Shown here in pieces: positions 8,156 to 32,000 of a DNA stretch of 32,000 nt (position 1 is the stretch's first letter; every line of letters begins with the position of its first letter). Origin of the DNA: an uncultured Bacilli bacterium (lineage in GTDB: Bacteria; Bacillota_I; Bacilli_A; RF39; UBA660); assembly GCA_944329425.1 (NCBI GenBank), contig CALVIG010000004.1, positions 59,323-91,322 on the forward strand, read 5' to 3'. The translations under genes and the position numbers were made by a program. The notes under the pieces are model-generated. The model made no database searches and was not told the DNA's origin. It saw nothing but the letters and a program-made list of their open reading frames with translations.

Positions 8156-8921
8156 TTACCTCCTTAGCTAAATTAAGGTATGCCTCCGTTCCACGACTCA
8201 TTGGATCATATGCTATTATTGGTTTGCCATGTGATGGCGCTTCAGTTAACCTTATTAATCTTGGAATAAGCGTGTTATATACTCTTTCTTTAAAAAACCC
8301 CCTTATTTCTTCAACAACTTCTAAACCCAAATTTGTTCTAGAGTCTAACATCGTAAGTAGTACTCCTTCTATTTCTAAACCTGGATTAAGTTTTTTTTGT
8401 GCCAACATTATTGAATTTAGTAATTGCATTATTCCTTCTAATGCAAAAAATTCACATTGTACGGGTATTAAAACCGAATTAGCCGCCGTTAGGGCGTTTG
8501 TTGTTAAAAGTCCAAGAGATGGTGGACAATCGATTATTATAAAATCATAATCATTTATGATTGGTGACAAAGCTATTTTAAGCTGCATATTCTTTTGAAA
8601 CTCAGGATTCTGCTTACTTTTTTCTATAAGTTCTATATCTGCTCCCGCTAAATTTATCGTAGCTGGTATAATACTTAAATTTTTAAAATTAGTTCGTATT
8701 ATAGCTTGATTTGCATTACATCTACCAAGAAGTAAATCATAAATACTCTTATCCACGTCGCCTTTATTAATTCCAACTCCCGTTGATGCATTACCTTGAG
8801 GATCCAAGTCAATGAGCAAAACTTTTTTATTTTGCACGCCCAAAGATGCAGATAAATTAATACTTGTTGTTGTTTTTCCAACGCCGCCTTTTTGATTTAC
8901 TAAAGCAATTACTTTGCCCAT
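8127..8921 (-). CDS. parA: chromosome partitioning ATPase ParA/Soj
   Basis: Deviant Walker A (NQKGGVGKTTT). ATG at 8919-8921 with a GAGGGGAAG RBS; the ORF-track start at 8939 is probably too far upstream. Confidence 0.9.
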   Translation of the reverse strand: MGKVIALVNQKGGVGKTTTSINLSASLGVQNKKVLLIDLDPQGNASTGVGINKGDVDKSIYDLLLGRCNANQAIIRTNFKNLSIIPATINLAGADIELIEKSKQNPEFQKNMQLKIALSPIINDYDFIIIDCPPSLGLLTTNALTAANSVLIPVQCEFFALEGIMQLLNSIMLAQKKLNPGLEIEGVLLTMLDSRTNLGLEVVEEIRGFFKERVYNTLIPRLIRLTEAPSHGKPIIAYDPMSRGTEAYLNLAKEVIEHNERREQ

Positions 8922-9009
8922 TATTACACTTCCCCTCACTACTCGTGTATTATTATTTTAACATCTATATTCTATCAAAAAAAAACTTTTTTTTAAAGAC
9001 TTAATTAAC

Positions 9010-10038: not shown

Positions 10039-10950
10039 TTACTTGCTTCTTACTAACTTAATTATATTACTTGCAACCATTGCACCCTCACTTGTTGCAG
10101 TAACAACTTGATATAAATCTTTACTAATAGAATCACCGCACGCATACACGTTATTAGCGGTGGTTTTTAAATCTTTGTCAACCACTATTCCCCTGTTATC
10201 GGTTTTTAAATTTAAGTTTTGATAAAACGCCGAATTATTTGTTTGACCAATACAAACAAAAATTCCGCTTAGATTAATTTCAGTCCCATCTTCCAGTACA
10301 ACACCTTGAACACCAGTATCATCTCCAATAATATCTTTTAGCTTAGTATTGTATAAGACGTTTACGTTTTCGAGCTTTTTTATTTCTTCTTGGCCTTTTT
10401 GATCTGCCCTTAAATTGCTTGATCTATTAATTATGTATATTTTATTTGCAATATTACTCATATAATTAGCAGTATCGATAGCAGTGTTACCTCCGCCTAC
10501 TATAGCAATATCTTTATTTCTATATAATGCCCCATCACAAACAGCGCAGTAAGAAATACCTTTACCCTCATATTTTTCTGAGTTTTTAACTTCTAACTTT
10601 TTTGGAGTTCTTCCGGTAGCTATAATAATGTATTTAGAAACAAAAACGTTATTTTTAGTAAATACCTCATATGAACCATTGGTACTTTTTATGTTTATAA
10701 CCTTTTCAATCTTTAAATCTATTCCAAGGCTTTCTACTTGGCTGTACATTCTAAAAGCCAGAATCGAACCAGTATCATCAGTAAAACCAGGATAATTTTC
10801 AATTTTATGAATCTTATTTAAAAGCCCTCCCGGAGCCTCTGATTCAAGTAATAAACAATTAACATTAGCTCTTTTAAGATAAATACTAGCTGAAATTCCA
10901 GCTGGGCCTGCGCCTATTATGATAACATCATATTTAGTATTTGATTTCAT
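10039..10950 (-). CDS. trxB: thioredoxin-disulfide reductase
   Basis: FAD motif IIGAGPAG, redox CAVCDG, NADPH motif VGGGNTA, and C-terminal GD motif (ACGD). Confidence 0.9.
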   Translation of the reverse strand: MKSNTKYDVIIIGAGPAGISASIYLKRANVNCLLLESEAPGGLLNKIHKIENYPGFTDDTGSILAFRMYSQVESLGIDLKIEKVINIKSTNGSYEVFTKNNVFVSKYIIIATGRTPKKLEVKNSEKYEGKGISYCAVCDGALYRNKDIAIVGGGNTAIDTANYMSNIANKIYIINRSSNLRADQKGQEEIKKLENVNVLYNTKLKDIIGDDTGVQGVVLEDGTEINLSGIFVCIGQTNNSAFYQNLNLKTDNRGIVVDKDLKTTANNVYACGDSISKDLYQVVTATSEGAMVASNIIKLVRSK

Positions 10951-11743
10951 TTTTAGCCGCCTTTTCTTCGTTATAATTATTACACTTAATTTTAGTAATT
11001 ATAAACATTATTATTCCTAATATAACCATAAAAACAGATATTAATTGTGCCATTTTTATATTTCCTAACATTAAACTATCGGTTCGTAAAGACTCAACAA
11101 AAAACCTTACTAAGCCATACCAAATAAGATATATTGACGTAGTCGCGCCCAATTTAGTGTTTTTTAAACTTCTAACCCCAATTAACACAAAGAACCCTAT
11201 CAGACACAAAATAGATTCATATAAAAACGTAGGATGATAATAATTACCATTTATGTGCATCCCGTTAATGATAAATTCCGGTAGGTGTAAACCTTCTAAA
11301 AAAGCTCTCGATACGGCACCACCATGTGCTTCCGCGTTAAAGAAATTTCCCCATCTACCAATAGCTTGTGCTAATATAAGTCCTGGAGCTGCTATATCAA
11401 TCATTTTAAGAACGTTAACACCGTATTTTTTGCAATAAATTATTAACGTTATTACCCCCGCAATTATACCACCATGAATTGCAAGGCCTCCATTCCATAC
11501 CTTTATTATTTCTATTGGAGCGGCACTATAATAATCCAAATTAAATAATACATAATATATTCTTGCGCCTAGTATACCAAAAACCACACACCAAAAAACT
11601 AAATTAGTTACAAAAGCACTAGAAATGTTATTTTTCTTTGCCTCTTTATTAATTACTATACCTGCCAAAATTATACCAGTAAGTATACAAATTGAATACC
11701 AAGTTATTGAAACTGGACCTATGTTTATAGCTATTTTACTCAT
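10934..11743 (-). CDS. lgt: prolipoprotein diacylglyceryl transferase
   Basis: Polytopic membrane protein with the GRWGNFFNAEAHG signature and a typical HGG block. Confidence 0.9.
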   Translation of the reverse strand: MSKIAINIGPVSITWYSICILTGIILAGIVINKEAKKNNISSAFVTNLVFWCVVFGILGARIYYVLFNLDYYSAAPIEIIKVWNGGLAIHGGIIAGVITLIIYCKKYGVNVLKMIDIAAPGLILAQAIGRWGNFFNAEAHGGAVSRAFLEGLHLPEFIINGMHINGNYYHPTFLYESILCLIGFFVLIGVRSLKNTKLGATTSIYLIWYGLVRFFVESLRTDSLMLGNIKMAQLISVFMVILGIIMFIITKIKCNNYNEEKAAKNEIKY

Positions 11744-11744
11744 A

Positions 11745-12188
11745 TTATCTTTTACACCTTTCTATTAATGGTTTTATAATAATGTTTTCCATAAGAACGT
11801 TCATGAAACTTATGAATATTGAGACCACAAAAGGCGAAAGAAAACCCGTCAAATAAAAGTGCTTACCTAAAATTACGTTTACTAATAATAAAATAAATAC
11901 GTTTATAACAAAATAAAATAATCCCAAAGACATTCCAATAAGAGGTAATGTTAAAGTAACCAATATTGGTTTTATTGTTTTATTAAGAACGTATATTATA
12001 ATTGCTGCTAAAATACCATACCAAAAATTTTCTACGTATAATGACCTAAATAAATTTGAAGTTATTAATAATACTAAGGCATAACCAAACATATATATTA
12101 ACCATTCTAAAAATAAATTCAAACGATACTCAATATTTTGACCATTAACTTTTTTCTTTTTATTATCATTAACCACGATTACTTTCAT
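11745..12188 (-). CDS. YvlD-like / phage-holin-4_2 family membrane protein
   Basis: 147 aa with 4 TM helices. FW..ILAAIIIYVLNKTIKPILVTLTLPLIGMSLGLFYFVINVF matches the family consensus. Adjacent to lgt. Confidence 0.65.
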   Translation of the reverse strand: MKVIVVNDNKKKKVNGQNIEYRLNLFLEWLIYMFGYALVLLITSNLFRSLYVENFWYGILAAIIIYVLNKTIKPILVTLTLPLIGMSLGLFYFVINVFILLLVNVILGKHFYLTGFLSPFVVSIFISFMNVLMENIIIKPLIERCKR

Positions 12189-12323
12189 ATTATCACCAGT
12201 ATAATTATATCATAACCTTGCTAATTTAATCATGCTTTTTTGTCAAATTATTTATTACTAGTTATAAGAAAACTTGCGCGTTATATTTATCTACTTTAAA
12301 TTTAATAAAATAATATTATTTTA

Positions 12324-12782
12324 TTAATCAAGTGTACAGCTCATAATAAGTTTATTAACTTTGAAACCAAAAAAATTATAAAGTTTTAATGCGTTTTTAT
12401 TTTGATCACATACTTTAAGTTCCATATACTTTGCATTTTTAAGTTTAGCCCATTTTTTAAACTCAAATACTAGTTGACTACCAATACCTTTTTTTCTATG
12501 TTCTTCTAATACGTATAGTGCGTCAAGTACGCAAACAACATCTTTTTTTGTATCTCCATTATCCTGAACATAACCATATACGTACCCAACCACAGTATTT
12601 TCTTGCTTTGCAATTAAAAGACACACTGATTGTTCATTATAAAATTTTTCGTATAATGATTTAACAACGCAATATTCATTTATATTATCATCGTATTTTT
12701 TTTCATCTTTTATTAACTTTGTTAACAGTTCATTTGCAACTAAAGCTGTTTTTCGATCTGCTTTTACTATTTTAATTGCCAT
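12324..12782 (-). CDS. GNAT family N-acetyltransferase
   Basis: Acetyl-CoA binding motif HRKKGIGSQL, 152 aa, AAGAGGA RBS. Confidence 0.8.
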   Translation of the reverse strand: MAIKIVKADRKTALVANELLTKLIKDEKKYDDNINEYCVVKSLYEKFYNEQSVCLLIAKQENTVVGYVYGYVQDNGDTKKDVVCVLDALYVLEEHRKKGIGSQLVFEFKKWAKLKNAKYMELKVCDQNKNALKLYNFFGFKVNKLIMSCTLD

Positions 12783-16263: not shown

Positions 16264-17181
16264 TTATTTTCTTTTGTTAGGTTTATAGTAAGTAATTGTC
16301 ATACCATGCGATTGTTTCTCAAAAAAGCAGCTTTTATTAGCATCAACAAACCTAGTATCAAGGCCTCTTTTTCCTATGTTAAAATCATTATTATTACGTT
16401 TTTTTACACCGTAACCCGCCTGAATCAAACCCCTGCAAGTAAGCTTTAGCTCTAACTGTTTTAATAATTTTAAAAATTTTTCTAATTCGCATTTACTAAA
16501 ATAACTACTTATATTAGAAAACACCATTGCAGAATATTTTTCATCTCCAAGATTTTTGTTTAAATCAAAGATATTACAGTCAACAAAATCTACCGAAGTC
16601 AATTTTTTCATATTTTCTTGTAATTTCTCATAGTTTTTACGTGTTAAATAACCTGATAATTTTGGATAATGTTTGACGTTTATTAAATTAAATTTTTCAC
16701 AAATAGTAGCGTTAATCATAACATCAAAAAGCAACTCAAAAAAAAGTGCAACAGTATTTTCTAAATTAGAACATACTTTTTCGTATAAATACGTATCTAC
16801 GTTTGTTAAAAAACCACCTGCTACATAATTAGAAAAGGGTTTATTAATTTTATATAGCTTTATAAATTCATCATACGATAAGCATGATACCGCGGAAAAT
16901 TTAAACAATGCAAAATATTTTGCTAATTTATTAATATCAAACATCTTAACGTTTTTAGCACCTTTTAAAATTGCCATTAAAGCTTGATCACCCGAGCCAG
17001 TCACCGTAAGAATACCTTGAGTAACATCTAACGGTTCAAAAATATCTTTTAGCCTATCATTAGTAAATAGATAAATATTATCGTAAGTGGAAAAGTATGA
17101 TGGAGTCGAATCATTTCCAACTTTCATTAATCCTTTTAATTGCATAAAATCATTATCAACGTCATTCCTTGTGATATTCAT
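16264..17181 (-). CDS. DUF3419-like (BtaA C-terminal-domain-like) SAM-dependent methyltransferase-fold protein
   Basis: ILTVTGSGDQALMAILKGAKNVKMFDINKLAKYFALFKFSAVSCLSYDEFIKLY resembles the DUF3419 N-terminal block (SxGxNaL...V.aVDlNp.Q..LleLK...L.yeeF). Only 21 nt upstream of uvrA. Confidence 0.5.
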   Translation of the reverse strand: MNITRNDVDNDFMQLKGLMKVGNDSTPSYFSTYDNIYLFTNDRLKDIFEPLDVTQGILTVTGSGDQALMAILKGAKNVKMFDINKLAKYFALFKFSAVSCLSYDEFIKLYKINKPFSNYVAGGFLTNVDTYLYEKVCSNLENTVALFFELLFDVMINATICEKFNLINVKHYPKLSGYLTRKNYEKLQENMKKLTSVDFVDCNIFDLNKNLGDEKYSAMVFSNISSYFSKCELEKFLKLLKQLELKLTCRGLIQAGYGVKKRNNNDFNIGKRGLDTRFVDANKSCFFEKQSHGMTITYYKPNKRK

Positions 17182-17263
17182 AATACTTCATTCCTTAGTG
17201 ATTAAATATACTAACACATTATTAAATAAAACTCAATAAAATCATAAAAACTTGTATATTATA

Positions 17264-17296
17264 AAAAGGTTTTGTCTTCAAAACCTTTTTTAAAAT
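17264..17296 (-). terminator. rho-independent terminator of uvrB
   Basis: aaggtttt (17266..17273) pairs with aaaacctt (17280..17287) across a 6-nt loop, followed by a T-run. Confidence 0.7.
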
Positions 17297-17299
17297 AAT

Positions 17300-19255
17300 C
17301 TAATTAACCTTCATCTCGAATATGATGTCACGAAGTTCCATAGCGCGCTCAAAATCCAATTCTTTAGCAGCTTTTTGCATTTCTTCTTCCAGCTGTTTAA
17401 TTAATTTATCATTGTTAATTTCTTCACGTTTTGGGCGTTTTTTATTAGCAGAAGAATCATCATCGTTTATACTTACAACATCCATTATTTTCTTTTTTAT
17501 TGTTTTAGGAACGATATTATGTTCCTTATTATATTTAACTTGAATCGCACGTCTTCTTTGTGTTTCTTCAATTGCGGTTTTCATGGCATCACTTATTATA
17601 TCACCATACATTATAACCCTACCATCAGAGTTCCTTGCACACCTTCCGATGGTTTGAATAAGACTTCTATGACTTCTTAAGAAGCCTTGTTTATCGGCAT
17701 CTAAAATAGCCACTAAGCTAACCTCAGGGATATCAAGTCCCTCACGGAGCAAATTAATTCCAACCAGAACATCATATTTTCCAGTTCTTAAATCATGTAT
17801 AATTCTAAGTCGTTCTAAAGTTTTTACCTCACTATGTAAATAAGCAACTTTAATGTTTAAATCTTTTAAGTAAGAAGTTAATTCTTCTGCCATGCGAATC
17901 GTTAAAGTAGTAACTAAAGTCCTATCACCTTTTTTTATTTGTTTTTGAATTTCTTCTATTAAATCATCAATTTGATTATTGGACTTTCTAACCTCAATTA
18001 AAGGATCTAATAATCCAGTTGGCCTTATTATCTGTTCAATAACCTCATTGTTTACCTTTTGCAATTCTTCGTCTCCTGGTGTTGCAGAAACGTATATTAC
18101 TTGATTTATTTTTTTCTCAAACTCCTCGTACCTCAAAGGTCTATTATCTAAAGCACTTGGTAACCTAAACCCATAATCAACAAGCATCTGTTTTCTGTTT
18201 CGGTCTCCATTATACATTGCTTTTACCTGAGGTAACGTTACGTGTGATTCATCTATAACCATAAGATAATCTTTAGGGAAGAAATCTAAAAGACAAGTAG
18301 GAGTGGCTCCTTCTGGTTTTAACGCTAAATGTCTTGAATAATTTTCAACCCCAGAGCAAAAACCAGTTTCTGCAAGCATTTCCAAGTCATACTTACACCT
18401 TCCTTCCAGGCGTTCAGCTTCTAATAGTTTTCCATTTTCCCTAAAATATTTTAATCTATCATCCAATTCTTCTTTTATATTAATAATAGCTTTCTTTAAT
18501 TTTTCTTCACTGGTTACGAAATGAGAGGCCGGCATGATTGATATTATTTTTTTATCATTTATAACAACACCCGTTAATACATCAAATAAAGAAATTCTAT
18601 CTATTTCATCTCCAAACAATTCTATTCTTATGCCATGACTTTTTTCATAAACCGGAATAACCTCGATCACGTCACCTTTTGCTCTAAAAGTTCCTCTCGC
18701 TAAGTCAATATTATTTCTTTCATACATCATATCCACTAATTTACTTAGTATATTGTTTCTATCTATTGTTTGGCCAACCTCTAAAGTAAGCATCTGGTGT
18801 TCATATTCTTCTTTATCACCAATTCCGTATATACAGGAAACAGATGCCACTACTATTACATCTTTGTAGTTTATCAAAGAACTTGTAGCAAAGTGTCTTA
18901 ATTCATCTATTTCATCATTTATAGATGAGTCTTTTTCAATGTAAGTATCACTTGAAGGAACGTATGCTTCAGGCTGATAATAATCGTAGTACGAAACAAA
19001 GTAACAAACGTGATTGTTTGGAAAGATTTCCTTTAGCTCTGAGTACAACTGGCCCGCTAGCGTTTTGTTGTGTGCTAAAACTAGTGTAGGCTTGTTTACT
19101 TCTTTAATTACGTTTGCTATTGTAAATGTTTTACCAGTACCCGTTGCCCCTAGTAAAACCTGGTATTTCTTACCATCTTTTATCCCATCAGAAAGCTCTT
19201 TTATTGCTTCTGGCTGATCGCCTGATGGTTTAAATTTAGACACTAAATCAAACAT
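17300..19255 (-). CDS. uvrB: excinuclease ABC subunit B (intact)
   Basis: [18 protein letters not shown] start (ATG 19253-19255, GGAGG RBS), Walker [13 protein letters not shown] box, helicase motifs and a C-terminal UVR domain. The ORF-track start at 19306 is too far upstream. Confidence 0.97.
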
Positions 19256-19301
19256 TTTGTCCTCCTTACTATGATTACTATCAACCTCAAAAATTCGTAT
19301 T

Positions 19302-19315
19302 TTCAAAATTTTGAA
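19302..19315. promoter_or_regulatory. 14-bp perfect palindrome TTCAAAATTTTGAA upstream of intact uvrB (candidate operator; contains a TTGAAA -35-like hexamer on the minus strand)
   Basis: Read directly from the sequence. Lies 47-60 nt upstream of the uvrB ATG. Confidence 0.3.
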
Positions 19316-19343
19316 GTTTGGCTGATACGTGCCGAAAACACTA

Positions 19344-19368
19344 AAATACGCCTCTCGGCCACAAATTT
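19344..19368 (+). repeat. left copy of the island-flanking direct repeat AAATACGCCTCTCGGCCACAAATTT
   Basis: 23/25 identical to 23644..23668. Preceded by CTGATACG and followed by TAAATAACACTAAT (19371..19384), which recurs inverted at 23680..23693. Confidence 0.7.
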
Positions 19369-19548
19369 AATAAATAACACTAATTAACATGAAATAAACC
19401 TTATTAATCTATTCTAACACTTATTTTATAAGGAATCAACAAGGTTTACTAATTTTGATTTAGACGATTTTTAGGCTGTTTTTATATATCTCTTCGCAAT
19501 CAAATTCGTATCCAACTTTTATCTTGTCGTTAAAATAATAATTTCACC

Positions 19549-19581
19549 TCAAAAAAAATGCAAAATATCAAATTGCATTTT
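19549..19581 (-). terminator. rho-independent terminator closing the island operon
   Basis: aaaatgcaa (19555..19563) pairs with ttgcatttt (19573..19581) across a 9-nt loop, followed by T8 on the minus strand. Confidence 0.65.
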
Positions 19582-19606
19582 TCTTATATATTAATTATGA
19601 TAATAT

Positions 19607-20164
19607 TCATTCATTAACAGAACATTCTTCACATTCAGAAGTTTTTAGAGAACATCTCATATATAATTGATTACCACGAAAAGCTGTTTGCCCTTCAAAA
19701 TAGACATAACCATTTTTTACATCTTTAATCTTTGTACCATACATTACAACTTTTTCTGACAAATCTTTTTTCTTTGTATTACCTCCATCTAATGTATACT
19801 CATACACAACTGAACCGAATAATCTAGTAATATATAACTTATCTACAGAAAAATAATTTTGATCTTCAAATTTATAATCGTCTGGACCTGAAGAGTCAAA
19901 CTCATCAAGTTTAATATAATCATTATCAGAAACTTTATAAAACAACCCATTTATCGCTACTTCACTACCTTCTGGAGTAATATCAGTAACCACATAAGTT
20001 TCTTCTTGTTTTGTCTTATCATTTACAATTTGATAACTCATAGTTTTTGTATCTCTATCATTCAAATCATAATGTTCAAAATTTTCATATTCATTATTAC
20101 TCTTATCAAAAATACAGCCACAAACACAAACAGTTAAAATAAAAATTAATAATATTCTTTTCAT
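19607..20164 (-). CDS. putative lipoprotein (185 aa from the ATG at 20164)
   Basis: MKRILLIFILTVCVCGC is a signal peptide with a lipobox-like VCGC. GAGG RBS 6 nt upstream of the ATG. No recognisable domain; the C-terminus is Cys-rich. Confidence 0.6.
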   Translation of the reverse strand: MKRILLIFILTVCVCGCIFDKSNNEYENFEHYDLNDRDTKTMSYQIVNDKTKQEETYVVTDITPEGSEVAINGLFYKVSDNDYIKLDEFDSSGPDDYKFEDQNYFSVDKLYITRLFGSVVYEYTLDGGNTKKKDLSEKVVMYGTKIKDVKNGYVYFEGQTAFRGNQLYMRCSLKTSECEECSVNE

Positions 20165-20187
20165 ACTTAACCTCACTTAATATTTAT

Positions 20188-20466
20188 TTAATAATATAAT
20201 TCTTTTGGAACATCTTTTTCTTCTATATATTTAACCGTTGATAAATCTAAACTTATTCTTGCATAAAATTCATCTGCAACATAAGTATATTGATAATAAA
20301 TAAAACCATTACAAAATCCTAAAACTCTATTCATTCTTCCTGGAGTACCATTAAATAATGACGAACTATTGTGATCTATTATTTTTCCGGTAGACAAATC
20401 GTATGATTTAACATCAAAGTTTAATATATATAATAGAATCAAGTTGTTTAACTTACTTCCAATCAT
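20188..20466 (-). CDS. small hypothetical protein (92 aa from the ATG at 20466; the ORF track extends to a TTG at 20505); possibly a gene fragment
   Basis: ORF only, with no convincing RBS. The sequence is beta-strand-rich (GFCNGFIYYQYTYVADEFYARISLDL). Confidence 0.35.
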   Translation of the reverse strand: MIGSKLNNLILLYILNFDVKSYDLSTGKIIDHNSSSLFNGTPGRMNRVLGFCNGFIYYQYTYVADEFYARISLDLSTVKYIEEKDVPKELYY

Positions 20467-20534
20467 GGATAGATACCATTTATACAGATTTTCTTGTGCT
20501 CTCAAAACTCGTAAAAATCACAAGGCTTACTTTT

Positions 20535-20933
20535 TTATTTTTTATTTAAATCAATTTTTATTTCCTCTAATATATGGCCTATATTTCCTTCCCCCGCATA
20601 TTTGCTCATATCAAAGAAGTCATCACTAGCACTCACCCATTCTAATTTATTAACCTCTTCAACCAACTGGACATCCTTATTCAATATTCCATAATATACT
20701 TCTAATTCTTTATTCCATTTAACATAAACAATGTCCATAAAGTAAGTTAAATCAATATCACTTTTATGAATATTAGTTTCTTCTTCCAACTCTCTATAAG
20801 CCTCATTTAGGCCATCGTCAGGAACCTCTATTTTTCCACCAACCAAATTATACATACCTTTATATGGTTCTTTTGTTCTTTTACACATCAAAGTTTTACT
20901 CAAATCTTTGTTAAAAACTACTATTACGTTCAT
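20535..20933 (-). CDS. Nudix hydrolase (ATG at 20933; the ORF-track TTG is at 20942)
   Basis: Nudix box at 20769..20837: GKIEVPDDGLNEAYRELEEETNI, i.e. G-x5-D-x7-REL-x-EE-x-N-I, slightly degenerate relative to GX5EX7REUXEEXGU. Confidence 0.75.
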   Translation of the reverse strand: MNVIVVFNKDLSKTLMCKRTKEPYKGMYNLVGGKIEVPDDGLNEAYRELEEETNIHKSDIDLTYFMDIVYVKWNKELEVYYGILNKDVQLVEEVNKLEWVSASDDFFDMSKYAGEGNIGHILEEIKIDLNKK

Positions 20934-20996
20934 CTTTTTCAAGTTTAATCAACTCATGTACATTTTAACATAAAAACATGACAAAATTAACTATGT

Positions 20997-22847
20997 TTAC
21001 TTAATAACTTTAATTATTTCATTTTTCAAATGTTCTCTTAACGGCTCGTCATCACAGTATATATAGCAACCTTTGATACCTCTAGTCAACAAAACTCTAT
21101 ACGTATTTTTAATTAAAGTGTCAGCAATATTATCAGCCTTTTTATAATTTTGCTTATATAACTTTTTTATACCCTTAAATGACGGATCAGCTGATCCGTG
21201 ACCAAAAAAATCACTTACTACTTTCCCATCGCGATATTTCAAATCACTTCCTATTATTACTCCTACATAATCAAACTCTAACCCTTGTACAGAATGAATA
21301 CATCCCGCTTCATTTATTGAATCATCAATTGCGAATGTTTGACCTTGACCTAAATTCCAACTCATCTCAAAGTCTTTTATAACAATATCATGAAAATCAG
21401 GATTATTGATTTCCTTTTTATTCCAATTCCAACAATATCCAGCTACGACTCTCGATAAATCAGTTTTATTTTTTTCTTTTATTAATCTAACAAGTTCTTG
21501 AGGACTATCAATAATTTTTAAATCATAATTAATATTTGCACCATTATACAAATCATTTATTCCCAAAAGATAATCAACAAAATTGATATAATCATTAGAA
21601 TTATTGCACCTGAATTGAGATTCAAGATTTAGAATATGAACTTTCGAATTTAAATCTTGAGAAAATTTTTTAATATTTTCTATTGTTCCAATATCATTAA
21701 AATGAACTCTTTGATTTTCATCTATAAAGAAAACAGAAGTCTTTGAAGAATTTATAATCTCTTTAATTTGGTTTTCGCCATAATTATTAAACAAACCGGA
21801 TTTTTCAGTCAAACAATGTGCCTCATCAACAAGTAAAACATCAAAAATATTTTTATCTGTTTCGGTATAGCTCCCTGACGATTTAAACAGATTATCAATA
21901 CTACTTTTTTTCATATTTCCCTTTAACTTAAATGAATATATTACACGCGGAGCAGTATTTCTAGAAACATATTGGCATAATTTTCTTTTATTAATAAAAT
22001 AATTCAATAAATTAATAGCAATTACAGATTTTCCGGTTCCAGGATTTCCTTTGACAATAATAGTACTTTTTTCTTCGCTTTCTTCTGCCAATACTATTTT
22101 ACTAAAAGCCTCCATTTGTTCATCGATCAGCGTAAAATAATCATTATTAACTATTAAACTATTAATTTTTTCTTGTAATTTAGGAGATGGAGTCATAGTA
22201 GAATTATCGATGTTACTTATAATAACTCCATTATCTCCTTTTGATAAATTACCCTCAATATATTTTTTTAATTCTGTTTCATTATTTTTTCCGAAAATCT
22301 CAACTTCTTTATTAAACGTGTCAAACTTTTCATTCAACAAAACATCATTTTTTTCCAAATCATAATTGTGCAATAAAACCGCTAGAGAAACAGATATTTC
22401 ATTATCCTGAATATAAGTATTAAAATCTTTTAACAATTGTCCATACGACCATACCTGATAACCCGGATGCAAAACCTGTCTTAATCCGCCGTTAATAAAT
22501 GTCTCAACTAAATAATCACTACTAGGAACATCATTCACTTTTTCCCATTGTTTCAATTCAAAAACAATTAATTTTTCCTTATTGTTTTTATCATAGCCTG
22601 ATAATATCAAGTCAATCCGATTAGAAGTCATTGGCAAGTTATATTCAAGTGTAATAGCACAATTTTCATCTAAATTACATTCATTAAGAATTTTTGAAAA
22701 ATAGTTTAATGAGGAATTCCATGATTCAATCTCTGATTTTCCAGAGAATTTAAACATTTTTTTCTTTATCAAATCATTTAAGATTTTAGATATTCCAAAA
22801 CTAATGTCTCTGTTAAACTCTTTTATATTCTTACTATATATAATCAT
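20997..22847 (-). CDS. DUF2075-type protein: N-terminal PD-(D/E)xK-like nuclease module plus P-loop NTPase plus UvrD_C-like helicase C-terminal module
   Basis: ATG at 22847 with an AGGTGG RBS. Nuclease-like motif E..LP....RIDLIL (D at 22611..22613) and IVFELKQW (E-x-K at 22551..22559). Walker A GNPGTGKS (22026..22049). Walker B LLVDEAH (21816..21827). IHSVQGLEFDYVGVIIG (21270..21299). Confidence 0.75.
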   Translation of the reverse strand: MIIYSKNIKEFNRDISFGISKILNDLIKKKMFKFSGKSEIESWNSSLNYFSKILNECNLDENCAITLEYNLPMTSNRIDLILSGYDKNNKEKLIVFELKQWEKVNDVPSSDYLVETFINGGLRQVLHPGYQVWSYGQLLKDFNTYIQDNEISVSLAVLLHNYDLEKNDVLLNEKFDTFNKEVEIFGKNNETELKKYIEGNLSKGDNGVIISNIDNSTMTPSPKLQEKINSLIVNNDYFTLIDEQMEAFSKIVLAEESEEKSTIIVKGNPGTGKSVIAINLLNYFINKRKLCQYVSRNTAPRVIYSFKLKGNMKKSSIDNLFKSSGSYTETDKNIFDVLLVDEAHCLTEKSGLFNNYGENQIKEIINSSKTSVFFIDENQRVHFNDIGTIENIKKFSQDLNSKVHILNLESQFRCNNSNDYINFVDYLLGINDLYNGANINYDLKIIDSPQELVRLIKEKNKTDLSRVVAGYCWNWNKKEINNPDFHDIVIKDFEMSWNLGQGQTFAIDDSINEAGCIHSVQGLEFDYVGVIIGSDLKYRDGKVVSDFFGHGSADPSFKGIKKLYKQNYKKADNIADTLIKNTYRVLLTRGIKGCYIYCDDEPLREHLKNEIIKVIK

Positions 22848-22849
22848 AT

Positions 22850-23476
22850 TTACCACCTGTTTAAAATTTTATTTTTATCAACACAGTTATACGTCAAATA
22901 TTCACCAGTTATAAATTTACTATCATTAAAGCGTTTCATTACAACATCATTAAATTCTAAGCTCCAATCCTCATCCGAATAATTAAGGATTTTTTGATAA
23001 GTACCTATACTTTTCAAATAATTCAAATACATTTCATAAGTATTAAACGTCATTAAAAAATTATTTCTAGAAGCAGACATTGCATAAAGTCCAGCCTCGC
23101 TTACTATTTCGTCCGTCTGTTCTATACTATACCTTCCATTCAATTCGTCATCCATAAATGTTTCTTTTAAATAATTATTTCCTGGTACTGAAAATAAAAT
23201 TCTACCATCACTAGACAATAAATTTTTAGCTTTCCTTAAAGATTCAATGGGATCAGCCATATGATGCAATACATAACTAAATATTATTATATCAAATTTA
23301 CTATCAGAATCATACTTCATAAAATCTTTATTCATAAATATCGCTTTATTGTGGTTGATTTTTTCAAAACTTTTTTATGTTTTTTAATAATTAGGAATAG
23401 CATAACCATATATATACTTACTGTTTATAGAGTATTTCTTTTGTTTGAATTTATCTCTTGAATTACCCTCAAACAT
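22850..23476 (-). pseudogene. decayed class I SAM-dependent methyltransferase (Methyltransf_11/25-like)
   Basis: The 161-aa ORF (22850..23335) retains the post-motif-I part (FDIIIFSYVLHHMADPIESLRKAKNLLSSDGRILFSVPG) but has no GxGxG motif and no RBS. An in-frame upstream ATG at 23476 (MFEGNSRDKF...) is cut by two TAA stops (23384..23386 and 23375..23377). Confidence 0.6.
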
Positions 23477-23643
23477 ATATACATCTCATACCTCTTTTCA
23501 ATCTTTTTGGAAAAGAAAAAACATATAAAAAATTACATGTTATTGGAAATATAATTTAAACACCTGGATACGTTTTATACATAGCCGGTATCATATAAAT
23601 ATTTTAATTAATTAACAAACATATCTAATAACTGGATACGAAT

Positions 23644-23668
23644 AAATACGCCTGTCGGCCATAAATTT
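23644..23668 (+). repeat. right copy of the island-flanking direct repeat AAATACGCCTGTCGGCCATAAATTT
   Basis: 23/25 identical to 19344..19368. CTGGATACG occurs at 23632..23640 and again at 23564..23572. Confidence 0.7.
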
Positions 23669-23715
23669 CTTTTTTAACTATTAGTGTTATTTAAGTTTAA
23701 TTAAGTATTTCAACG

Positions 23716-24027
23716 TTATTTGATAACACTAAATAATAATGATTTCAATAGGTTATCATAATAAGATACAAAGTAACATACATGATTATTAGGAAATAGT
23801 TCTTTTAGTTCACTATAAAGTTGCCCCGCAAGCGTTTTATTATGAGCTAAAACAAGGGTAGGTTTATTAACTTTTTTAATAACATTTGCAATCGTAAACG
23901 TTTTTCCGGTTCCGGTGGCGCCTAACAAAACCTGATATTTTTTCTTTTCTTCAATTCCTTCAGCCAGCTTTTCTATAGCTTCTGGTTGATCACCAGACGG
24001 TTTAAAATTAGATACTAAATCAAACAT
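23716..24027 (-). pseudogene. uvrB: truncated uvrB 5' fragment (codons 1-91 plus a 12-codon unrelated tail)
   Basis: [18 protein letters not shown]...GATGTGKT...CYFVSYYD matches intact UvrB at 81/91 residues. Homology stops at 23755, then [12 protein letters not shown] and a stop. Confidence 0.9.
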
Positions 24028-24058
24028 AATATCACCTTTATAATTTTATTATTGTTTT

Positions 24059-24067
24059 ATTATATCA
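24059..24067 (-). promoter_or_regulatory. extended -10 (TGATATAAT) of the displaced uvrB promoter
   Basis: The reverse complement of attatatca reads TGATATAAT. An AAAGGTGAT RBS lies at 24031..24039 and the ATG at 24025..24027. Confidence 0.5.
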
Positions 24068-24075
24068 TACATAAT

Positions 24076-24102
24076 AAAAAAACATAAGTATGCTACTTAT
24101 GT
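24076..24102 (-). terminator. rho-independent terminator of the pilin-like gene
   Basis: acataagta (24082..24090) pairs with tacttatgt (24094..24102) across a 3-nt loop, followed by T7 on the minus strand. Confidence 0.7.
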
Positions 24103-24924
24103 TTAATTACAGTTGTTTTCTCTTGTTATTTGATTAATAGAGCATAATCCAACACCAGCATTTTTAACTATTCCACAATCAAGGTCATTAACTATACCGT
24201 CAAAATTCACGTCTGCTGATTTTAAATATGCACTACTTAGTTTATTTGCCCCAGAAGCTTGTAACTCAACTGCTGAAGTATCAAAGGAATCAATTACTCC
24301 ATCTCCATTTACATCTCCAAAGCCAACAAATTGATATTCTTTATATATTTCACCAGTTGAATCTTTTAAAATAATCTTACTTCCGGTAGCATAAATACCA
24401 TTTTTATTTTTTTCAAAACTAAGTGAACCATTTGATACTTTAAAATAAGAAGAAAAATCTGAATAGTATAATTTATTATCTATCGAATATATTAATCCAT
24501 TAGCATTATCTATAACCCCATTTTCACCTTTTAAGGTTAATGTCGGCACCTTTGATTTTTCTTCTGCGGTTATTTTGGTTCCTGATATCGCATACTTATC
24601 ATTACTAATGTCAAGATAATATGAATAACTTCCATCTGCTTCTTCTTTAACGGTTACCGTCCCTGAAACTTCTTCTTTATTATCTATATCCAAATCTTTT
24701 ACATCAACCACTTTTGGTAAGTTGTCATATTTTTCTGGCATTGATACCATTTCTAATTCAACCGCTTTAACAATGCTTTTAGCGGTTGTTTCAAACGCTG
24801 ACTTTTCAGATTTTTTTATTGCTTTATTTACTTGTTGAGTTGCAATAACCATTATAATTGCTAAAACCACAATTACTGCTAAAAGCTCTATCAAAGTAAA
24901 TCCATAAATATTTTTATTTTTCAT
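24103..24924 (-). CDS. type IV pilin/pseudopilin-like protein with a C-terminal dockerin-type module
   Basis: Prepilin class III signal MKNKNIYG|FTLIELLAVIVVLAIIM. C-terminal duplicated Ca-binding loops GDVNGDGVIDSFD and ADVNFDGIVNDLD (24148..24318). Confidence 0.75.
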   Translation of the reverse strand: MKNKNIYGFTLIELLAVIVVLAIIMVIATQQVNKAIKKSEKSAFETTAKSIVKAVELEMVSMPEKYDNLPKVVDVKDLDIDNKEEVSGTVTVKEEADGSYSYYLDISNDKYAISGTKITAEEKSKVPTLTLKGENGVIDNANGLIYSIDNKLYYSDFSSYFKVSNGSLSFEKNKNGIYATGSKIILKDSTGEIYKEYQFVGFGDVNGDGVIDSFDTSAVELQASGANKLSSAYLKSADVNFDGIVNDLDCGIVKNAGVGLCSINQITRENNCN

Positions 24925-30043: not shown

Positions 30044-30760
30044 TCAAGTCCAAAATGTTAATAAATCTATTTCATATCCCTTTTTCTTTACCTCATCAAC
30101 TATTTTTTTGTAAGTATCTGATTTCATATTTTTCATTCTTCTATATCCACCAAACGATTTTGGGGCAATATTAGGTAAATTTTCAAGCAACCAATAATAT
30201 TGCTCTCGAACCTTTGACTCTTCTATATATGGATCTATTATTCTTTTTTGATAATCCTCTTTTGTTTCATCTCCCATTTTTGCACAAAAATCTTGTAAAT
30301 TATGAAGCTCATCCAATCTAGTACCATGAAGTTTATCAATATTATTATGTTCTATTCTAGCTTCATCAAATCTTCCAGCCAAAATCAAAAAATCAACCAG
30401 TCTTTCGTAATTATCTCTCGTATACTGATAAAAAGATAAAGGATATAATTCATTAACCTTTCTTAAGCATTCAATTGCCAAATCATATTGTTGATTATTC
30501 TTATATTCAGTTGCTTGTCTACTTAATATTTGCTCTGGCATATATACAACGCTTCTTCCACCATCAGAATATCTTTTTGCTTCTTCAACAGGTATTGATC
30601 TTATACCAGCTACAGATGTTAAATCATATCTATCTTTAAATTCTTTTATACGTTCGTTATTATATTTATCATATTCTTCTTGATTAAAATTATCATCACT
30701 TTGATAACTATTCTTAACAATCGCATTAAGAGATTCAGATATTTTGCCAAAAAGAGACAT
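30044..30760 (-). CDS. hypothetical helical protein (238 aa), possibly TPR-like
   Basis: ATG with an AAGGAG RBS, 14 nt after the upstream gene's stop. No catalytic motif recognised. Confidence 0.65.
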   Translation of the reverse strand: MSLFGKISESLNAIVKNSYQSDDNFNQEEYDKYNNERIKEFKDRYDLTSVAGIRSIPVEEAKRYSDGGRSVVYMPEQILSRQATEYKNNQQYDLAIECLRKVNELYPLSFYQYTRDNYERLVDFLILAGRFDEARIEHNNIDKLHGTRLDELHNLQDFCAKMGDETKEDYQKRIIDPYIEESKVREQYYWLLENLPNIAPKSFGGYRRMKNMKSDTYKKIVDEVKKKGYEIDLLTFWT

Positions 30761-30774
30761 ATAATCACTCCTTT

Positions 30775-32000
30775 TTAATCATCATATGGTTCTATTGCTT
30801 TTAAAGAATTATTAGCATTTACATTACAACGATTTTCAAAATTCATACATATATTAAATGAATCACCTTTAATTAAATTCATTTCACTTAATTTATCTCT
30901 ATCAAATTTTATTGAATAAACATAATCATCATTTATTTGGCCTTTTCTATCTCTTCTTTGAGTATAAGAGGAAATGGTTATTTTATGAATCTTAGGACTA
31001 ATATTAAAAATATTTCCAACTACAAAAAGCGCTAATCCAAAAACATAATTCTTATAATCACTATATAATTCTGCTTGAGTTTTATCTTTCAATTTCATAT
31101 TACCATTAGCTAATTGAACTGCTTTCTGGTTTGGGAAATCTTCTATTTCTGGTAAATCCAGGTCAATTAGTAATAGATTTTCATTTTTTCTATAATCATA
31201 ACTAATATTACACTCAAATGGCATTTCTAATTCTGAAAACCATAAATCAATATCATTACATACGTAATCCCTATCGCCAGCAATAATGTTTTTTAAATAT
31301 TTTTTTGTATTTTCATATTTTTCTTTAAACTTTATATTATTTTCTATTTCTAACTTTTTCTCATTTTCTTCAAATTCTTCTTTTTGTTTTTTCCAATAAT
31401 CATATCTGATTTTATATATCTCATCATATTTACTGTTTACATATTCTTCTCTTTTTTTCTTTAAAGACCATACAGCTATACTTTTTATTTCCTTTATTGC
31501 AATTTTTAATAAATCAGCTTTTACACTGTCTTCTGTTGGCATAGGCATATCAAATTCTTTCTTATGATATTCTTCAGCCTTTAAATTGTTCAATTCATCA
31601 ATATAATCTTGTTCGTTAAAAATTTTTTCAGGACATAATTTATTAATATTAATTAAATCATTATTAGTTTTATTATGTTCTATAACTTTATTTAACATTT
31701 CTTGATTATGTTCTCTTTGCATTCTATCTTTTTCAGCTTTAAACTCATCAGTTCTTTTAATTTTGTTAATTAAACTTTGATCAGTTATTTCAGTGCCATT
31801 CGGATAAAAATAGGTCATGTTTCCATCATCATCCATATGTAGTCTAATAGTTGTTTGAACAATAGTTGGTTGAGATTTTGTTCTAGGCTTGCTATAACTT
31901 TTAGGAGATGAAGAAGTTACATAGGACAAGCCAGTTCCAGGTATTCCTATATGTTTTGTTTGTCTACCTTTTGAGTTAAAAGAATATCCATATCCTCTTC
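30775..32000 (-). CDS. DUF4236-domain protein (5' end beyond the window)
   Basis: The frame stays open upstream of the ORF-track TTG. Hand translation of 31930..31998 gives RGYGYSFNSKGRQTKHIGIPGTGLSY, matching the C-terminal part of the DUF4236 motif (...G.R.T.GIPGTGLSY). Followed by a K/E-rich coiled coil and an unknown C-terminal domain. Confidence 0.6.
   Translation of the reverse strand, partial: RGYGYSFNSKGRQTKHIGIPGTGLSYVTSSSPKSYSKPRTKSQPTIVQTTIRLHMDDDGNMTYFYPNGTEITDQSLINKIKRTDEFKAEKDRMQREHNQEMLNKVIEHNKTNNDLININKLCPEKIFNEQDYIDELNNLKAEEYHKKEFDMPMPTEDSVKADLLKIAIKEIKSIAVWSLKKKREEYVNSKYDEIYKIRYDYWKKQKEEFEENEKKLEIENNIKFKEKYENTKKYLKNIIAGDRDYVCNDIDLWFSELEMPFECNISYDYRKNENLLLIDLDLPEIEDFPNQKAVQLANGNMKLKDKTQAELYSDYKNYVFGLALFVVGNIFNISPKIHKITISSYTQRRDRKGQINDDYVYSIKFDRDKLSEMNLIKGDSFNICMNFENRCNVNANNSLKAIEPYDD

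Follow-up and report, generated by a model that had tools for sequence, protein, structure and literature searches.

The uvrB gene of the window (the whole 32,000-nucleotide stretch of DNA analysed here) appears to have been entered by a site-specific integrative element, the remnant of which, at 18996..23767, now forms a CIME-like island that has displaced the native first codons of the gene; we put the probability of this reading at about 0.88. The gene itself is full length and retains all of its domains. Its present 5' end is of the kind that the element brought in, the original one lying on the other side of the island.

All genes at the uvrB locus lie on the minus strand, and uvrB codons 1-91 are present twice: copy A (18983-19255) begins the intact uvrB, and copy B (23755-24027) continues for 12 codons to a stop, giving a stub ORF of 103 aa (23716..24027). 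Ungapped alignment of the two copies yields 64 mismatches in 273 nt (76.6% identity), with 52 at third, 10 at first and 2 at second codon positions; 81 of the 91 residues are the same, and 48 codons differ synonymously and 10 non-synonymously. By NG86, dN is 0.075 and dS is saturated and undefined. The mismatch and residue counts agree exactly with those in the original prediction (about 64 of 273 nt, mostly third positions; 81/91 residues). That prediction also placed a cassette of ~4.5 kb between the copies: the cassette is real, but a repeat search spaces the pair by 4,772 nt, and the element size is corrected to 4,772 bp. By alignment, no similarity between A and B exists 5' of the two ATGs or past codon 91. 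The earlier claim that homology ends after FVSYYD holds as far as similarity is concerned, but the crossover lies at codons 84-87 and not at D91. The A/B arrangement is present in every contig read with the exact UvrB or the exact stub (23 contigs per look-up, from many samples), and is no assembly artefact.

The copies also differ in composition. Over codons 1-91, GC3 is 0.34 in A and 0.20 in B, compared with 0.23 in the rest of uvrB and 0.14-0.26 in other window genes; in codons 53-91 of copy A it reaches 19/39. Copy A is 92-94% identical to the uvrB 5' copies of contig L101 (a sister species), and its GC3 exceeds that of other L101 genes as well; GC3 thus marks A as atypical for the window genome, but does not identify the donor.

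The native copy is revealed by an empty site. Contig L193, a 975-bp metagenome contig from another strain, was located through a partial UvrB in a protein search and is the one same-species empty site: the pilin-like gene, terminator, promoter and uvrB are contiguous. It matches window positions 24510..23755 at 96.6%. From the ATG onwards L193 tracks copy B with 1 mismatch in 260 nt, and then continues into the sequence downstream of copy A; copy A has 60 mismatches to L193 over nt 1-257. Downstream of the core, L193 nt 265-491 and the window uvrB show one differing position, and overall the divergence of the L193 strain from the window is ~0.4% across copy B and the part of uvrB 3' of the core. 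L193 changes from B-type to A-downstream sequence somewhere between nt 249 and nt 261. The 11-nt core TGTTACTTTGT occupies nt 250-260 (codons 84-87) and is identical at 11/11 positions in A and B; it is one of only two A/B identical runs of at least 10 nt, the other being nt 1-14. The empty site indicates that copy B is native, that copy A is element-borne, and that the crossover occurred within TGTTACTTTGT. The final 13 nt of the uvrB-like part of copy B (ATCTTATTATGAT) are element-derived, whereas copy A ends in 13 nt of host origin. One detail is not explained by simple crossover: the Ser87 codon is AGT in L193 and TCG in the window attR, such that all three bases differ.

The original prediction had proposed that an element brought a surrogate 5' end and promoter while displacing the resident 5' end, and that one copy was xenologous and not a recent local duplication. 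L193 supports both proposals, copy A being foreign by comparison. It also supplies the empty site that was to be sought, and identifies the species-typical segment as the displaced stub and not the uvrB-fused copy. Unoccupied sites are present in other relatives too: in L020 and L021 an M23 peptidase gene abuts uvrB, and these sites were never occupied. A full-UvrB search of genome contigs gave no close empty site; among the matches listed, relatives show at most ~72% amino acid identity and the window species is absent. Hence, unoccupied sites exist in relatives, and both window junctions fall in one short core. The locus, read from the pilin-like gene to uvrB, comprises the following features:

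24081..24103, minus strand: terminator hairpin and T-run of the pilin-like/dockerin gene (24103..24924); fold -11.9 kcal/mol.
24031..24067, minus strand: native uvrB promoter and RBS, with extended -10 TGATATAAT at 24059..24067 and RBS AAAGGTGAT at 24031..24039; identical in L193.
23779..24027, minus strand: host side of attL, native uvrB codons 1-83 (copy B); assigned by the L193 match and genome-typical GC3.
23768..23778, minus strand: core TGTTACTTTGT in attL, codons 84-87; assigned by A/B identity and the L193 switch point.
23716..23767, minus strand: element side of attL, the left end of the element, encoding S-Y-Y-D, a 12-codon tail and a stop; differs from L193 at nt 261-270.
23681..23732, minus strand: left-arm inverted repeat TTAGTGTTAT ... 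ATAACACTAA; also found after the stubs of L099, L101 and L102.
23644..23668, minus strand: left copy of a 25-nt direct repeat, AAATTTATGGCCGACAGGCGTATTT; 23 of 25 nt identical to 19344..19368.
23634..23644 and 23566..23576, plus strand: two GGATACGAAT-like boxes in the left arm, candidate integrase arm-type sites.
22850..23335, minus strand: C-terminal 161 aa of a guanylate-kinase/methyltransferase fusion, 5'-truncated; Pfam matches begin at about profile position 58-77.
20997..22856, minus strand: DUF2075/Schlafen group 3 helicase-like protein, 619 aa; PF09848 E = 1.7e-93, PADLOC candidate PDC-S41 E = 5e-18.
20535..20942, minus strand: NUDIX hydrolase, 135 aa; PF00293, PADLOC PDC-S07 E = 5e-9.
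19607..20505, minus strand: two small genes without family assignment, one of 105 aa (20188..20505) and one lipoprotein-like of 189 aa (19607..20176).
19554..19582, minus strand: candidate terminator-like hairpin AAAAATGCAA-N9-TTGCATTTTT with T-run, after the last cargo gene; read from sequence.
19256..19513, minus strand: right arm/leader of the element, containing a GGATACGAATT box (19503..19513), a promoter-like element TTGATT-17-TGTTAGAAT (19411..19439), the right 25-nt repeat (19344..19368), a box AAATACGAATT (19292..19302) and the RBS AAGGAGG.
19007..19255, minus strand: element side of attR, surrogate uvrB codons 1-83 (copy A); assigned by mismatches to L193, GC3 and identity to L101.
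18996..19006, minus strand: core TGTTACTTTGT in attR; assigned by the L193 alignment and the A/B identical run.
17300..18995, minus strand: native remainder of uvrB, codon 87 to stop; matches L193 and retains every UvrB Pfam domain.

The stub keeps the native context that had been claimed for it: the pilin-gene terminator, extended -10, RBS and ATG are all there, and the same terminator hairpin (with another loop) and the same promoter precede the intact uvrB of L193. Judging from these signals, the native uvrB promoter and RBS would now drive the stub. A terminator scan overlooked both AT-rich hairpins; an Rfam scan of 18900..24200 returned nothing real, and the window holds no tRNA genes.

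Both arms of the island carry repeated motifs. The two copies of the 25-nt repeat are its only matches in the 32 kb (0 expected). Boxes resembling GGATACGAAT with at most one mismatch occur in the window only at 23634..23644 and 19503..19513, in opposite orientation, and 5 of the 15 with at most two mismatches lie within the two end regions of 350-420 bp. These motifs may well be the arm sites of an integrase family. The leader is kept 5' of the uvrB-fused copy in L101, L099, L102 and L105; it is 90-94% identical between the window and L101, compared with 81% for the rest of uvrB. Its promoter probably drives uvrB in the window.

The same junction recurs widely. Among the 120 best stub matches, 97 show the same break after FVSYY, followed by a related, conserved tail; the original prediction had suggested a search for other elements carrying a uvrB 5' surrogate, and they are abundant. 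Across these 97 stub clusters the tail consensus is x-N-T/L-L-K-x-L-L-F-S-x-F, with K5, L8 and F9 nearly invariant. The junction is the same at the DNA level in L086, L099, L101, L102, L105 and L194, the window stub tail is identical to that of L101, and the exact 103-aa stub protein has index entries in 57 blocks of the collection. In L099 and L102, tandem cassette arrays occupy the same att site, each array unit carrying its own promoter and uvrB 5' copy; this is what a 5'-end site would dictate, since every unit must bring both. The L102 array includes degenerate stubs (8496..8627 and 11879..12031), and paired 5' copies in L099 and L194 are 98-100% identical.

In the sister species L101, a homologous island lies in the same place. 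Identity to the window falls into successive blocks of ~92%, 97.7%, 79% and 92%. The 97.7% block spans 2.8 kb of cargo, whereas among the flanking housekeeping genes identity ranges from 72%, in those upstream of the island, to 83%, in uvrA; some parts of the island therefore moved later than the split of the species. The mosaic further implies that the later history of the island included other recombination, too.

The window cargo (18996..23767) contains no recombinase, relaxase or T4SS genes by Pfam, and the called genes of conspecific contigs jointly covering most of the window (secA through parB) include no recombinase, in agreement with the original prediction. Phage structural and replication genes are likewise absent from the cargo by Pfam, and the island is not classed as a prophage or phage satellite. 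What remains looks defence-related. The methyltransferase fragment is 97.5% identical to the C-terminus of a 455-aa L101 protein, and ~1.1 kb of L101 (10104..11200) is missing from the window at this point; the two small cargo genes have L101 homologues of 79% nucleotide identity. A recurring 377-379-aa gene was considered as an integrase on account of its size and position, and was rejected: Pfam shows only a weak DUF3298 match.

An integrase beside the target is found in relatives. In L079, a 430-aa tyrosine integrase (Phage_integrase, SAM-like and Arm-DNA-binding domains) lies ~300 bp upstream of uvrB, and tyrosine integrases also lie directly upstream of uvrB in L106 and L107. The L079 protein has 1,231 homologues. 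At 55 of the 61 loci with enough downstream sequence, uvrB is found within 1.6 kb downstream of the integrase: a same-strand uvrB start lies 256-451 bp past it at 46 loci, and 0.8-1.6 kb past it at nine more. A second tyrosine recombinase usually sits directly upstream of the integrase, and some intact relatives carry conjugation-type genes (TraG P-loop/AAA_10, Peptidase_C39_2). In both L099 and L194, uvrB 5' copies are directly preceded by integrase C-terminal remnants. The pattern GTGRCY-N3-AKKYGT, contained in the window 25-nt repeat and defined after L079 and L086 had been seen, occurs at a fixed distance in 26 of 55 integrase-to-uvrB leaders, ~300 times the background of 0.0045 per kb.

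From these observations we infer that the window insertion was made by this uvrB-adjacent integrase family. An nhmmer profile of Erysipelotrichales leaders did not detect Clostridia leaders, and the case for linking window and integrase is consequently made by the remnants, the common target position and the short motif. The remnant search for an Erysipelotrichales-type integrase, which was word-indexed and may let full-length relatives escape, yielded nothing longer than C-terminal pieces of 71-216 aa; one of these is part of an integrase copy called as two ORFs (265 + 186 aa; L196, L197). No single contig yielded an intact element with its two ends and a complete integrase, Clostridia elements exceeding the 10-kb flanks, and IMG/VR scans with the integrase (as single sequence and as alignment) gave no true relatives.

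The proposed sequence of events is as follows. A single reciprocal (Campbell-type) crossover would have taken place in TGTTACTTTGT, at codons 84-87 of uvrB, with an element whose att site carried its own promoter, RBS and foreign uvrB codons 1-87. The resulting uvrB would consist of element codons 1-87 (10 amino acid changes, Walker A unchanged) and native codons 88-651, transcribed from the element leader. The native promoter and codons 1-83 would have been displaced 4.8 kb upstream; there the reading frame would close with 16 codons from the element and a stop, which accounts for the 103-aa stub. A lambda-type tyrosine integrase carrying an arm-binding domain is the most likely recombinase; its gene lies at the right end of intact relatives, reading towards uvrB, and would have been lost from the window together with the start of the first cargo gene, leaving attL and attR intact. 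Excision would restore attB and release a circle whose attP has the predicted junction ...CACGTTTGTTACTTTGTATCTTATTATGATAACC..., and the island may still be mobilised in trans.

Could the island have arrived without any site-specific recombinase, by homologous or homology-facilitated illegitimate recombination with DNA of a related species in which cargo genes already lay upstream of uvrB? The window lacks an integrase, and the 79% to 97.7% mosaic against the co-located L101 island shows that recombination other than a single integration did shape it. Yet both junctions fall in the same 11-nt stretch, B being native to nt 260 and A foreign to nt 249, which is the signature of one reciprocal circle crossover and not of two independent crossovers. 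Homologous recombination within 11 nt between partners of 77% identity is implausible, and many species whose uvrB sequences differ show this very junction and tail. We therefore consider such an origin very improbable. Even less credible is that the uvrB 5' end underwent a local tandem duplication long ago, diverged in place and later received unrelated genes between the copies. The copies are direct repeats in one genome, and the near-identical pairs of L099 and L194 could suggest local duplication; however, L193 is only ~0.4% from the window in copy B and in uvrB past the core, whereas A and B differ by 23% with synonymous sites saturated. In addition, A groups with another species' copies at 92-94%, and the regions upstream of A and B are unrelated. 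Unless L193 is chimeric, it refutes local duplication.

A further proposal supplements integration of an element into uvrB and does not replace it: the stub may be a maintained gene, whose UvrB N-terminal Walker-A peptide modulates nucleotide excision repair or serves the element. In keeping with this, the stub retains its native promoter, RBS and open frame, its exact protein recurs in the 57 blocks, and the tail stays in frame in the 97 clusters. However, the make-up of the att site by itself entails an open frame and a tail, integrase binding to the tail DNA would explain tail conservation equally well, and stubs have degenerated in the L102 arrays. A maintained function is thus unlikely.

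The kind of element to which we assign the island is known, as dusA-type 5'-end replacement and as CIMEs, and the uvrB target appears to be undescribed; a full-text literature search found no paper naming uvrB as an integration target. In islands and prophages with dusA-specific integrases, integration occurs at a conserved site in the 5' part of dusA and the 5' end is replaced by element sequence; a putative promoter is provided after integration, the original 5' remnant lies at the far side, and the two att sites form imperfect direct repeats (Farrugia et al. 2015, PMC4482086). The uvrB element is alike in replacing the 5' end of a housekeeping gene at a conserved site, in bringing a putative promoter, in leaving a displaced remnant and in having imperfect direct repeats as attL and attR. 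It differs in (i) its target, (ii) its hosts (Firmicutes, not Proteobacteria), (iii) the longer replaced segment (~260 nt coding plus a ~250-nt leader), and (iv) the second tyrosine recombinase that usually accompanies the integrase in the family, the window copy having no integrase.

CIMEs are described, in a review (PMC5704250, citing Pavlovic 2004 and Bellanger 2011), as keeping attL and attR while having lost integration genes, and as taking part in tandem accretion of ICEs/IMEs. The window island resembles them: both att sites are retained (cores identical at 11/11 positions, 25-nt repeat and boxes in both arms), genes for integration, excision and transfer are absent from the cargo by Pfam, and the truncated methyltransferase and the relatives' integrase remnants point to decay of an integrative element by deletion, with arrays in L099 and L102. 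Classic CIMEs lie at gene 3' ends (fda, tRNA-Lys), whereas the uvrB island lies at a 5' end.

The arrays of L099 and L102 are similar to integron cassette arrays in layout only, with short, often single-gene units that conserved recombination sites delimit, beside a tyrosine recombinase. In the uvrB family, neither an intI/attI/Pc platform nor an attC-type site was identified, each unit brings a promoter and a uvrB 5' copy of its own, the window has no integrase, and the relatives' integrases score 48 and 24 bits against NCBIfam integron-integrase models with cut-offs of 265 and 435. A parallel for entry into a coding gene is phage 21/e14 in E. coli icd, which integrates inside the gene and supplies a synonymously diverged gene end, leaving the protein functional. 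There, it is the 3' end that is replaced, no promoter is needed, and the element is of prophage type with its own integrase.

More tentatively, and with somewhat less than even odds, the first 87 codons of uvrB may serve gut Erysipelotrichales and Clostridia as a platform for integron-like accretion, on which a module of Xis and two tandem tyrosine recombinases stacks units, integrase-less ones being exchanged in trans. If so, each inserted unit would rebuild the uvrB promoter and 5' end, the stubs of an array would have between them one gene or a few, often with defence-like or nucleotide-metabolism roles (TIR, Schlafen-like helicase, NUDIX, Tmk/UDG/MazG), and the whole would be an undescribed, very common chromosomal cassette system tied to a DNA-repair gene.

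Through this large family of integrative elements, the universal DNA-repair gene uvrB serves as a dedicated landing site in gut Firmicutes; the family also provides a natural case of a gene's 5' end being replaced by a long surrogate, with a two-recombinase module. uvrB in these bacteria is often chimeric, its promoter and first 87 codons coming from a mobile element; the 5' end can accordingly differ in history from the remainder of the gene in phylogenies, and the element leader may rewire uvrB expression. The site gathers defence-like cargo and can be recognized in gene discovery by the signature of FVSYY followed by the tail. Hundreds of public 102-aa 'helicase' ORFs are att-site scars of this type.

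The duplicated uvrB 5' end lies in a run of genes on the - strand which, in gene direction, reads prfB, yitT, ftsE, ftsX, an M23/PcsB peptidase gene, a pilin-like gene, a 103-aa ORF (the stub), five cargo genes, uvrB, a DUF3419 gene and uvrA. The features at the core of the analysis are:

24103..24924, - strand: pilin-like protein with a dockerin domain
23716..24027, - strand: 103-aa ORF (stub)
23755..24027, - strand: copy B, the first 273 nt of the 103-aa ORF
17300..19255, - strand: uvrB
18983..19255, - strand: copy A, the first 273 nt of uvrB

Copies A and B align without gaps and mismatch at 64 of 273 nt (52 at third, 10 at first and 2 at second codon positions), with 81 of 91 residues identical; the original prediction had given about 64 mismatches and 81/91 residues, figures that proved exact on recount. 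At the codon level there are 48 synonymous and 10 non-synonymous differences, giving a dN of 0.075 and a saturated, undefined dS (NG86). No similarity between the copies was detected 5' of either ATG or past codon 91. The stub-island-uvrB layout was present on every contig read that carries an exact UvrB or an exact stub (each look-up covered 23 contigs, drawn from numerous gut metagenomes), and is therefore not an assembly artefact.

A search with the stub protein led to a site without the island. The search returned P0005, a 151-aa partial UvrB that is identical to copy B over residues 1–91 and then continues as normal UvrB. In its contig, L193 (975 bp, from a different sample than the window), the 3' part of the pilin-like gene is followed by a terminator hairpin that matches the window's except in its loop, then by the same promoter as in the window and an unbroken uvrB 5' region—that is, the contiguous empty site that the original prediction had proposed to look for. 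Counted from the ATG, L193 shows 1 mismatch to copy B over nt 1–260 and 60 mismatches to copy A over nt 1–257, making B the species-typical copy; over nt 265–491, it shows 1 mismatch to the window sequence 3' of copy A. The switch from B-type to A-downstream sequence thus falls between nt 249 and nt 261, an interval consisting of TGTTACTTTGT (codons 84–87); A and B share just one other identical stretch of 10 nt or more. Three junctions can be written around this core: attB (B-type sequence ending in TGTTACTTTGT, then TAGTTACTACGATTATTAT), attL at copy B (B-type sequence ending in TGTTACTTTGT, then ATCTTATTATGATAACCTATTG) and attR at copy A (A-type sequence ending in TGTTACTTTGT, then TTCGTACTACGATTATTAT). 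Together they are the trace left by a single reciprocal crossover of a circular element with uvrB. The element spans 18996..23767, and its 4,772 bp equal the spacing of the A/B repeat. Hence the proposal that an integrative element replaced the uvrB 5' end is supported, with the exception of its breakpoint: the crossover occurred at codons 84–87, rather than after D91.

The empty-site evidence consists of one short contig. Three points argue against L193 being a chimera of island-bearing reads: (i) the pilin region of L193 is 5% diverged from the window, (ii) neither copy in the window has AGT, the Ser87 codon of L193, and (iii) a repeat of only 11 nt would not lead an assembler astray. The Ser87 codon, beside the core, is TCG in the window attR (18992–18994), AGT in L193 (746–748) and TCT in attL; AGT and TCG differ at all three bases, more than a simple crossover would account for, the surrounding sequence being 99.6% identical. 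Two more distant relatives, L020 and L021, have no stub: their M23 gene abuts uvrB on its 5' side, an arrangement that shows the ancestral synteny. On these sequence comparisons, copy B is the native 5' end and copy A was brought in by the element. Base composition supports the same assignment. Copy A has a GC3 of 0.34 (19/39 over codons 53–91) and copy B one of 0.20; the remainder of uvrB stands at 0.23 and the window's other genes at 0.14–0.26.

The island entered by a Campbell-type insertion at the 11-nt core. Insertion left uvrB chimeric yet full-length, with 87 element codons and an unchanged Walker A; the 10 substitutions in the element codons are at positions that vary among relatives. 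The native promoter and the stub were displaced, and the element has since lost its integrase and had one cargo gene truncated. Its parts are as follows:

23767 down to about 23340: left arm, starting with 13 nt that still encode S-Y-Y-D, a 12-codon tail and a stop; contains the inverted repeat TTAGTGTTAT...ATAACACTAA and two GGATACGAAT-like boxes
23644..23668: 25-nt motif of the left arm, AAATTTATGGCCGACAGGCGTATTT
cargo: methyltransferase (C-terminal 161 aa); DUF2075/Schlafen-group-3 helicase-like protein (PF09848, E = 1.7e-93; PADLOC candidate PDC-S41); NUDIX protein (PADLOC PDC-S07); two small genes without family assignment
19513..19256: right arm (leader), with a GGATACGAATT box that is inverted relative to the left-arm boxes, one further box and a strong RBS
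19411..19439: promoter-like TTGATT-17-TGTTAGAAT in the right arm
19344..19368: second copy of the 25-nt motif, 23/25 identical to the left copy

The 25-mer occurs in the 32 kb only as these two copies (0 expected by chance), and 5 of 15 loose box matches fall within the two end regions, which jointly make up 2.4% of the window. As first stated, no recombinase was found in the element; the genes called on conspecific contigs, which jointly cover most of the window (secA through parB), include none either. Excision would generate an attP junction joining A-type ...AATCACGTTTGTTACTTTGT to ATCTTATTATGATAACCTATTG, and an attB junction joining B-type ...CATGTATGTTACTTTGT to T[TCG]TACTACGATTATTATCAG. 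Expression of uvrB is presumably now driven from the element's leader promoter, and the island may be a unit resembling a cis-mobilizable element (CIME), still movable by a related integrase.

Similar arrangements are found elsewhere. Among the best 120 stub matches, 97 are ORFs whose match to uvrB ends immediately after FVSYY and gives way to a related tail (mostly 11–12 residues, about 102 aa in total; consensus x-N-T/L-L-K-x-L-L-F-S-x-F), bearing out the expectation that other uvrB 5' surrogates exist; a further 18 are partial normal uvrB genes. The order stub, cargo, conserved leader, uvrB was read at six loci: L101 (the same island in a sister species), L105, L194 (GCA_947629815.1; 302-10481), L086 (Acutalibacteraceae; a one-gene unit with the same breakpoint as the window), L099 (10235-14210) and L102 (8496-13517). 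The last two are tandem arrays, in which two or three stubs, each with a one- or two-gene cassette, lie 5' of an intact uvrB; the second stub of L099 is 100% identical to the intact copy from -130 to +270, and L102 has two degenerate stubs besides. The cargo of L105 (10001-15189) comprises Tmk (thymidylate kinase), UDG, a MazG-like protein and a nucleoside deoxyribosyltransferase, and that of L194 a DUF1016 nuclease, TIR_2 and Band_7, followed by an integrase remnant directly 5' of uvrB; the cargo at both looks defence- or nucleotide-related. Recurrent as cassette cargo beside uvrB stubs is a conserved protein of 377–379 aa (L099 10729-11862; L105 8779-9918; and twice within the single L102 array, 8728-9864 and 10495-11628), with no NCBIfam match and only a weak DUF3298 hit. 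In an Erysipelotrichaceae MAG (L019, 5612-10001), 4.4 kb separates the M23 peptidase gene from uvrB, and this interval contains neither a uvrB stub nor a homologue of the window cargo.

Relatives also carry a candidate catalyst. In front of the leftmost stub of L099, and in the same reading frame, sits a 127-aa C-terminal piece of a tyrosine recombinase (HDLRHT...LGHS...NVY). This piece shares 56% identity with an integrase of L079 that is complete at 430 aa (Phage_integrase, SAM-like and Arm-DNA-binding domains) and is encoded some 300 bp 5' of uvrB. Homologues of the L079 integrase number 1,231 at E <= 1e-30; a scan of IMG/VR returned no relatives, which speaks against a phage family. We counted linkage at 80 metagenome loci, 61 of which have at least 700 bp downstream of the integrase: 46 of these have uvrB on the same strand, starting 256–451 bp 3' of the integrase, and in a further 9 it starts at 0.8–1.6 kb. 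Where enough upstream sequence was available, a second tyrosine recombinase (~400 aa) lies directly 5' of the integrase (32/33 loci), often itself preceded by an HTH_17 Xis-like gene. This recombinase-pair module was read at L107 (8543-11287), among L110-L189 and at L196 (5853-8561); L196 and L197 have the module with its second integrase split into two ORF calls. Several integrase loci have conjugation-type genes nearby (TraG P-loop/AAA_10, Peptidase_C39_2). The motif GTGRCY-N3-AKKYGT, which sits within the window's 25-nt repeat, occurs in 26 of 55 integrase-to-uvrB leaders, 124–147 nt upstream of uvrB (background 0.0045 per kb; the pattern was defined after two of these loci had been seen). 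This shared motif ties the integrase-less element of the window to the integrase-bearing ones. A whole-leader nhmmer profile did not cross between the two host groups. We infer that an integrase of this uvrB-linked, arm-binding family catalysed the insertion, and that the repeated end motifs are candidate arm sites for it.

Comparison with the homologous island at the same site in the sister species (L101) provides a history of the window copy. There, the first cargo gene is complete, encoding a 455-aa guanylate kinase-methyltransferase fusion, of which the window lacks about 1.1 kb. Nucleotide identity between the two is a mosaic:

Nucleotide identity of the window to the sister species locus
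Upstream housekeeping genes: 72%
Tail region: about 92%
Methyltransferase-DUF2075-NUDIX block: 97.7%
Two small cargo genes: 79%
Leader and first 180 nt of uvrB: 90-94%
Remainder of uvrB: about 81%
uvrA: 83%

Parts of the island have thus been exchanged between the species after their divergence. Copy A matches both L101 5' copies at 92–94% of nucleotides, with identical amino acids, while copy B is the outlier at 73–78%; the source of the element was probably an L101-like relative. The paired 5' copies of L099 and L194 are 98–100% identical, which suggests that homogenisation of such pairs is common. A surrogate could come to match its host's native 5' end by attL/attR conversion, or by excision through homologous recombination.

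Elements of this kind are already known, and the mechanism is familiar: integrative and mobilizable elements integrate at the 3' ends of housekeeping genes and, more rarely, at 5' ends, and their decay to CIMEs and tandem accretion have been reviewed (PMC5704250). New here are (i) uvrB as the target, and its hosts, (ii) the long surrogate, which comprises a leader and about 260 coding nt, (iii) the paired recombinases and (iv) arrays whose units each rebuild the 5' end of the gene. The literature searched, coverage of which was incomplete, yielded no account of integration into uvrB; the feature is a decayed member of an apparently undescribed uvrB-targeting family.

Other differences were seen along the window. 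The pilin-like gene (24103-24924) lies between the M23 peptidase gene and uvrB and encodes a prepilin N-terminal methylation motif as well as its dockerin domain. L101, L020 and L021 lack this gene, and in the conspecific contig L015 it is split; the L193 copy is 5% diverged, against 0.4% for its flanks. It looks like a separate, fast-evolving insertion. A low-GC DUF3419 gene (16264-17181) separates uvrB from uvrA, which are directly adjacent in L101. Between secA and prfB, a DUF4236 gene and its 238-aa neighbour (30044-31929) are missing from conspecific L013 (4234-4341) and so constitute a presence/absence polymorphism. Finally, at a position between acetyltransferase and holin-like genes where the window has no insert (11745-12782), conspecific L002 carries an extra block (16946-19461) encoding a radical-SAM/SPASM protein, a 59-aa ORF and a 318-aa protein.
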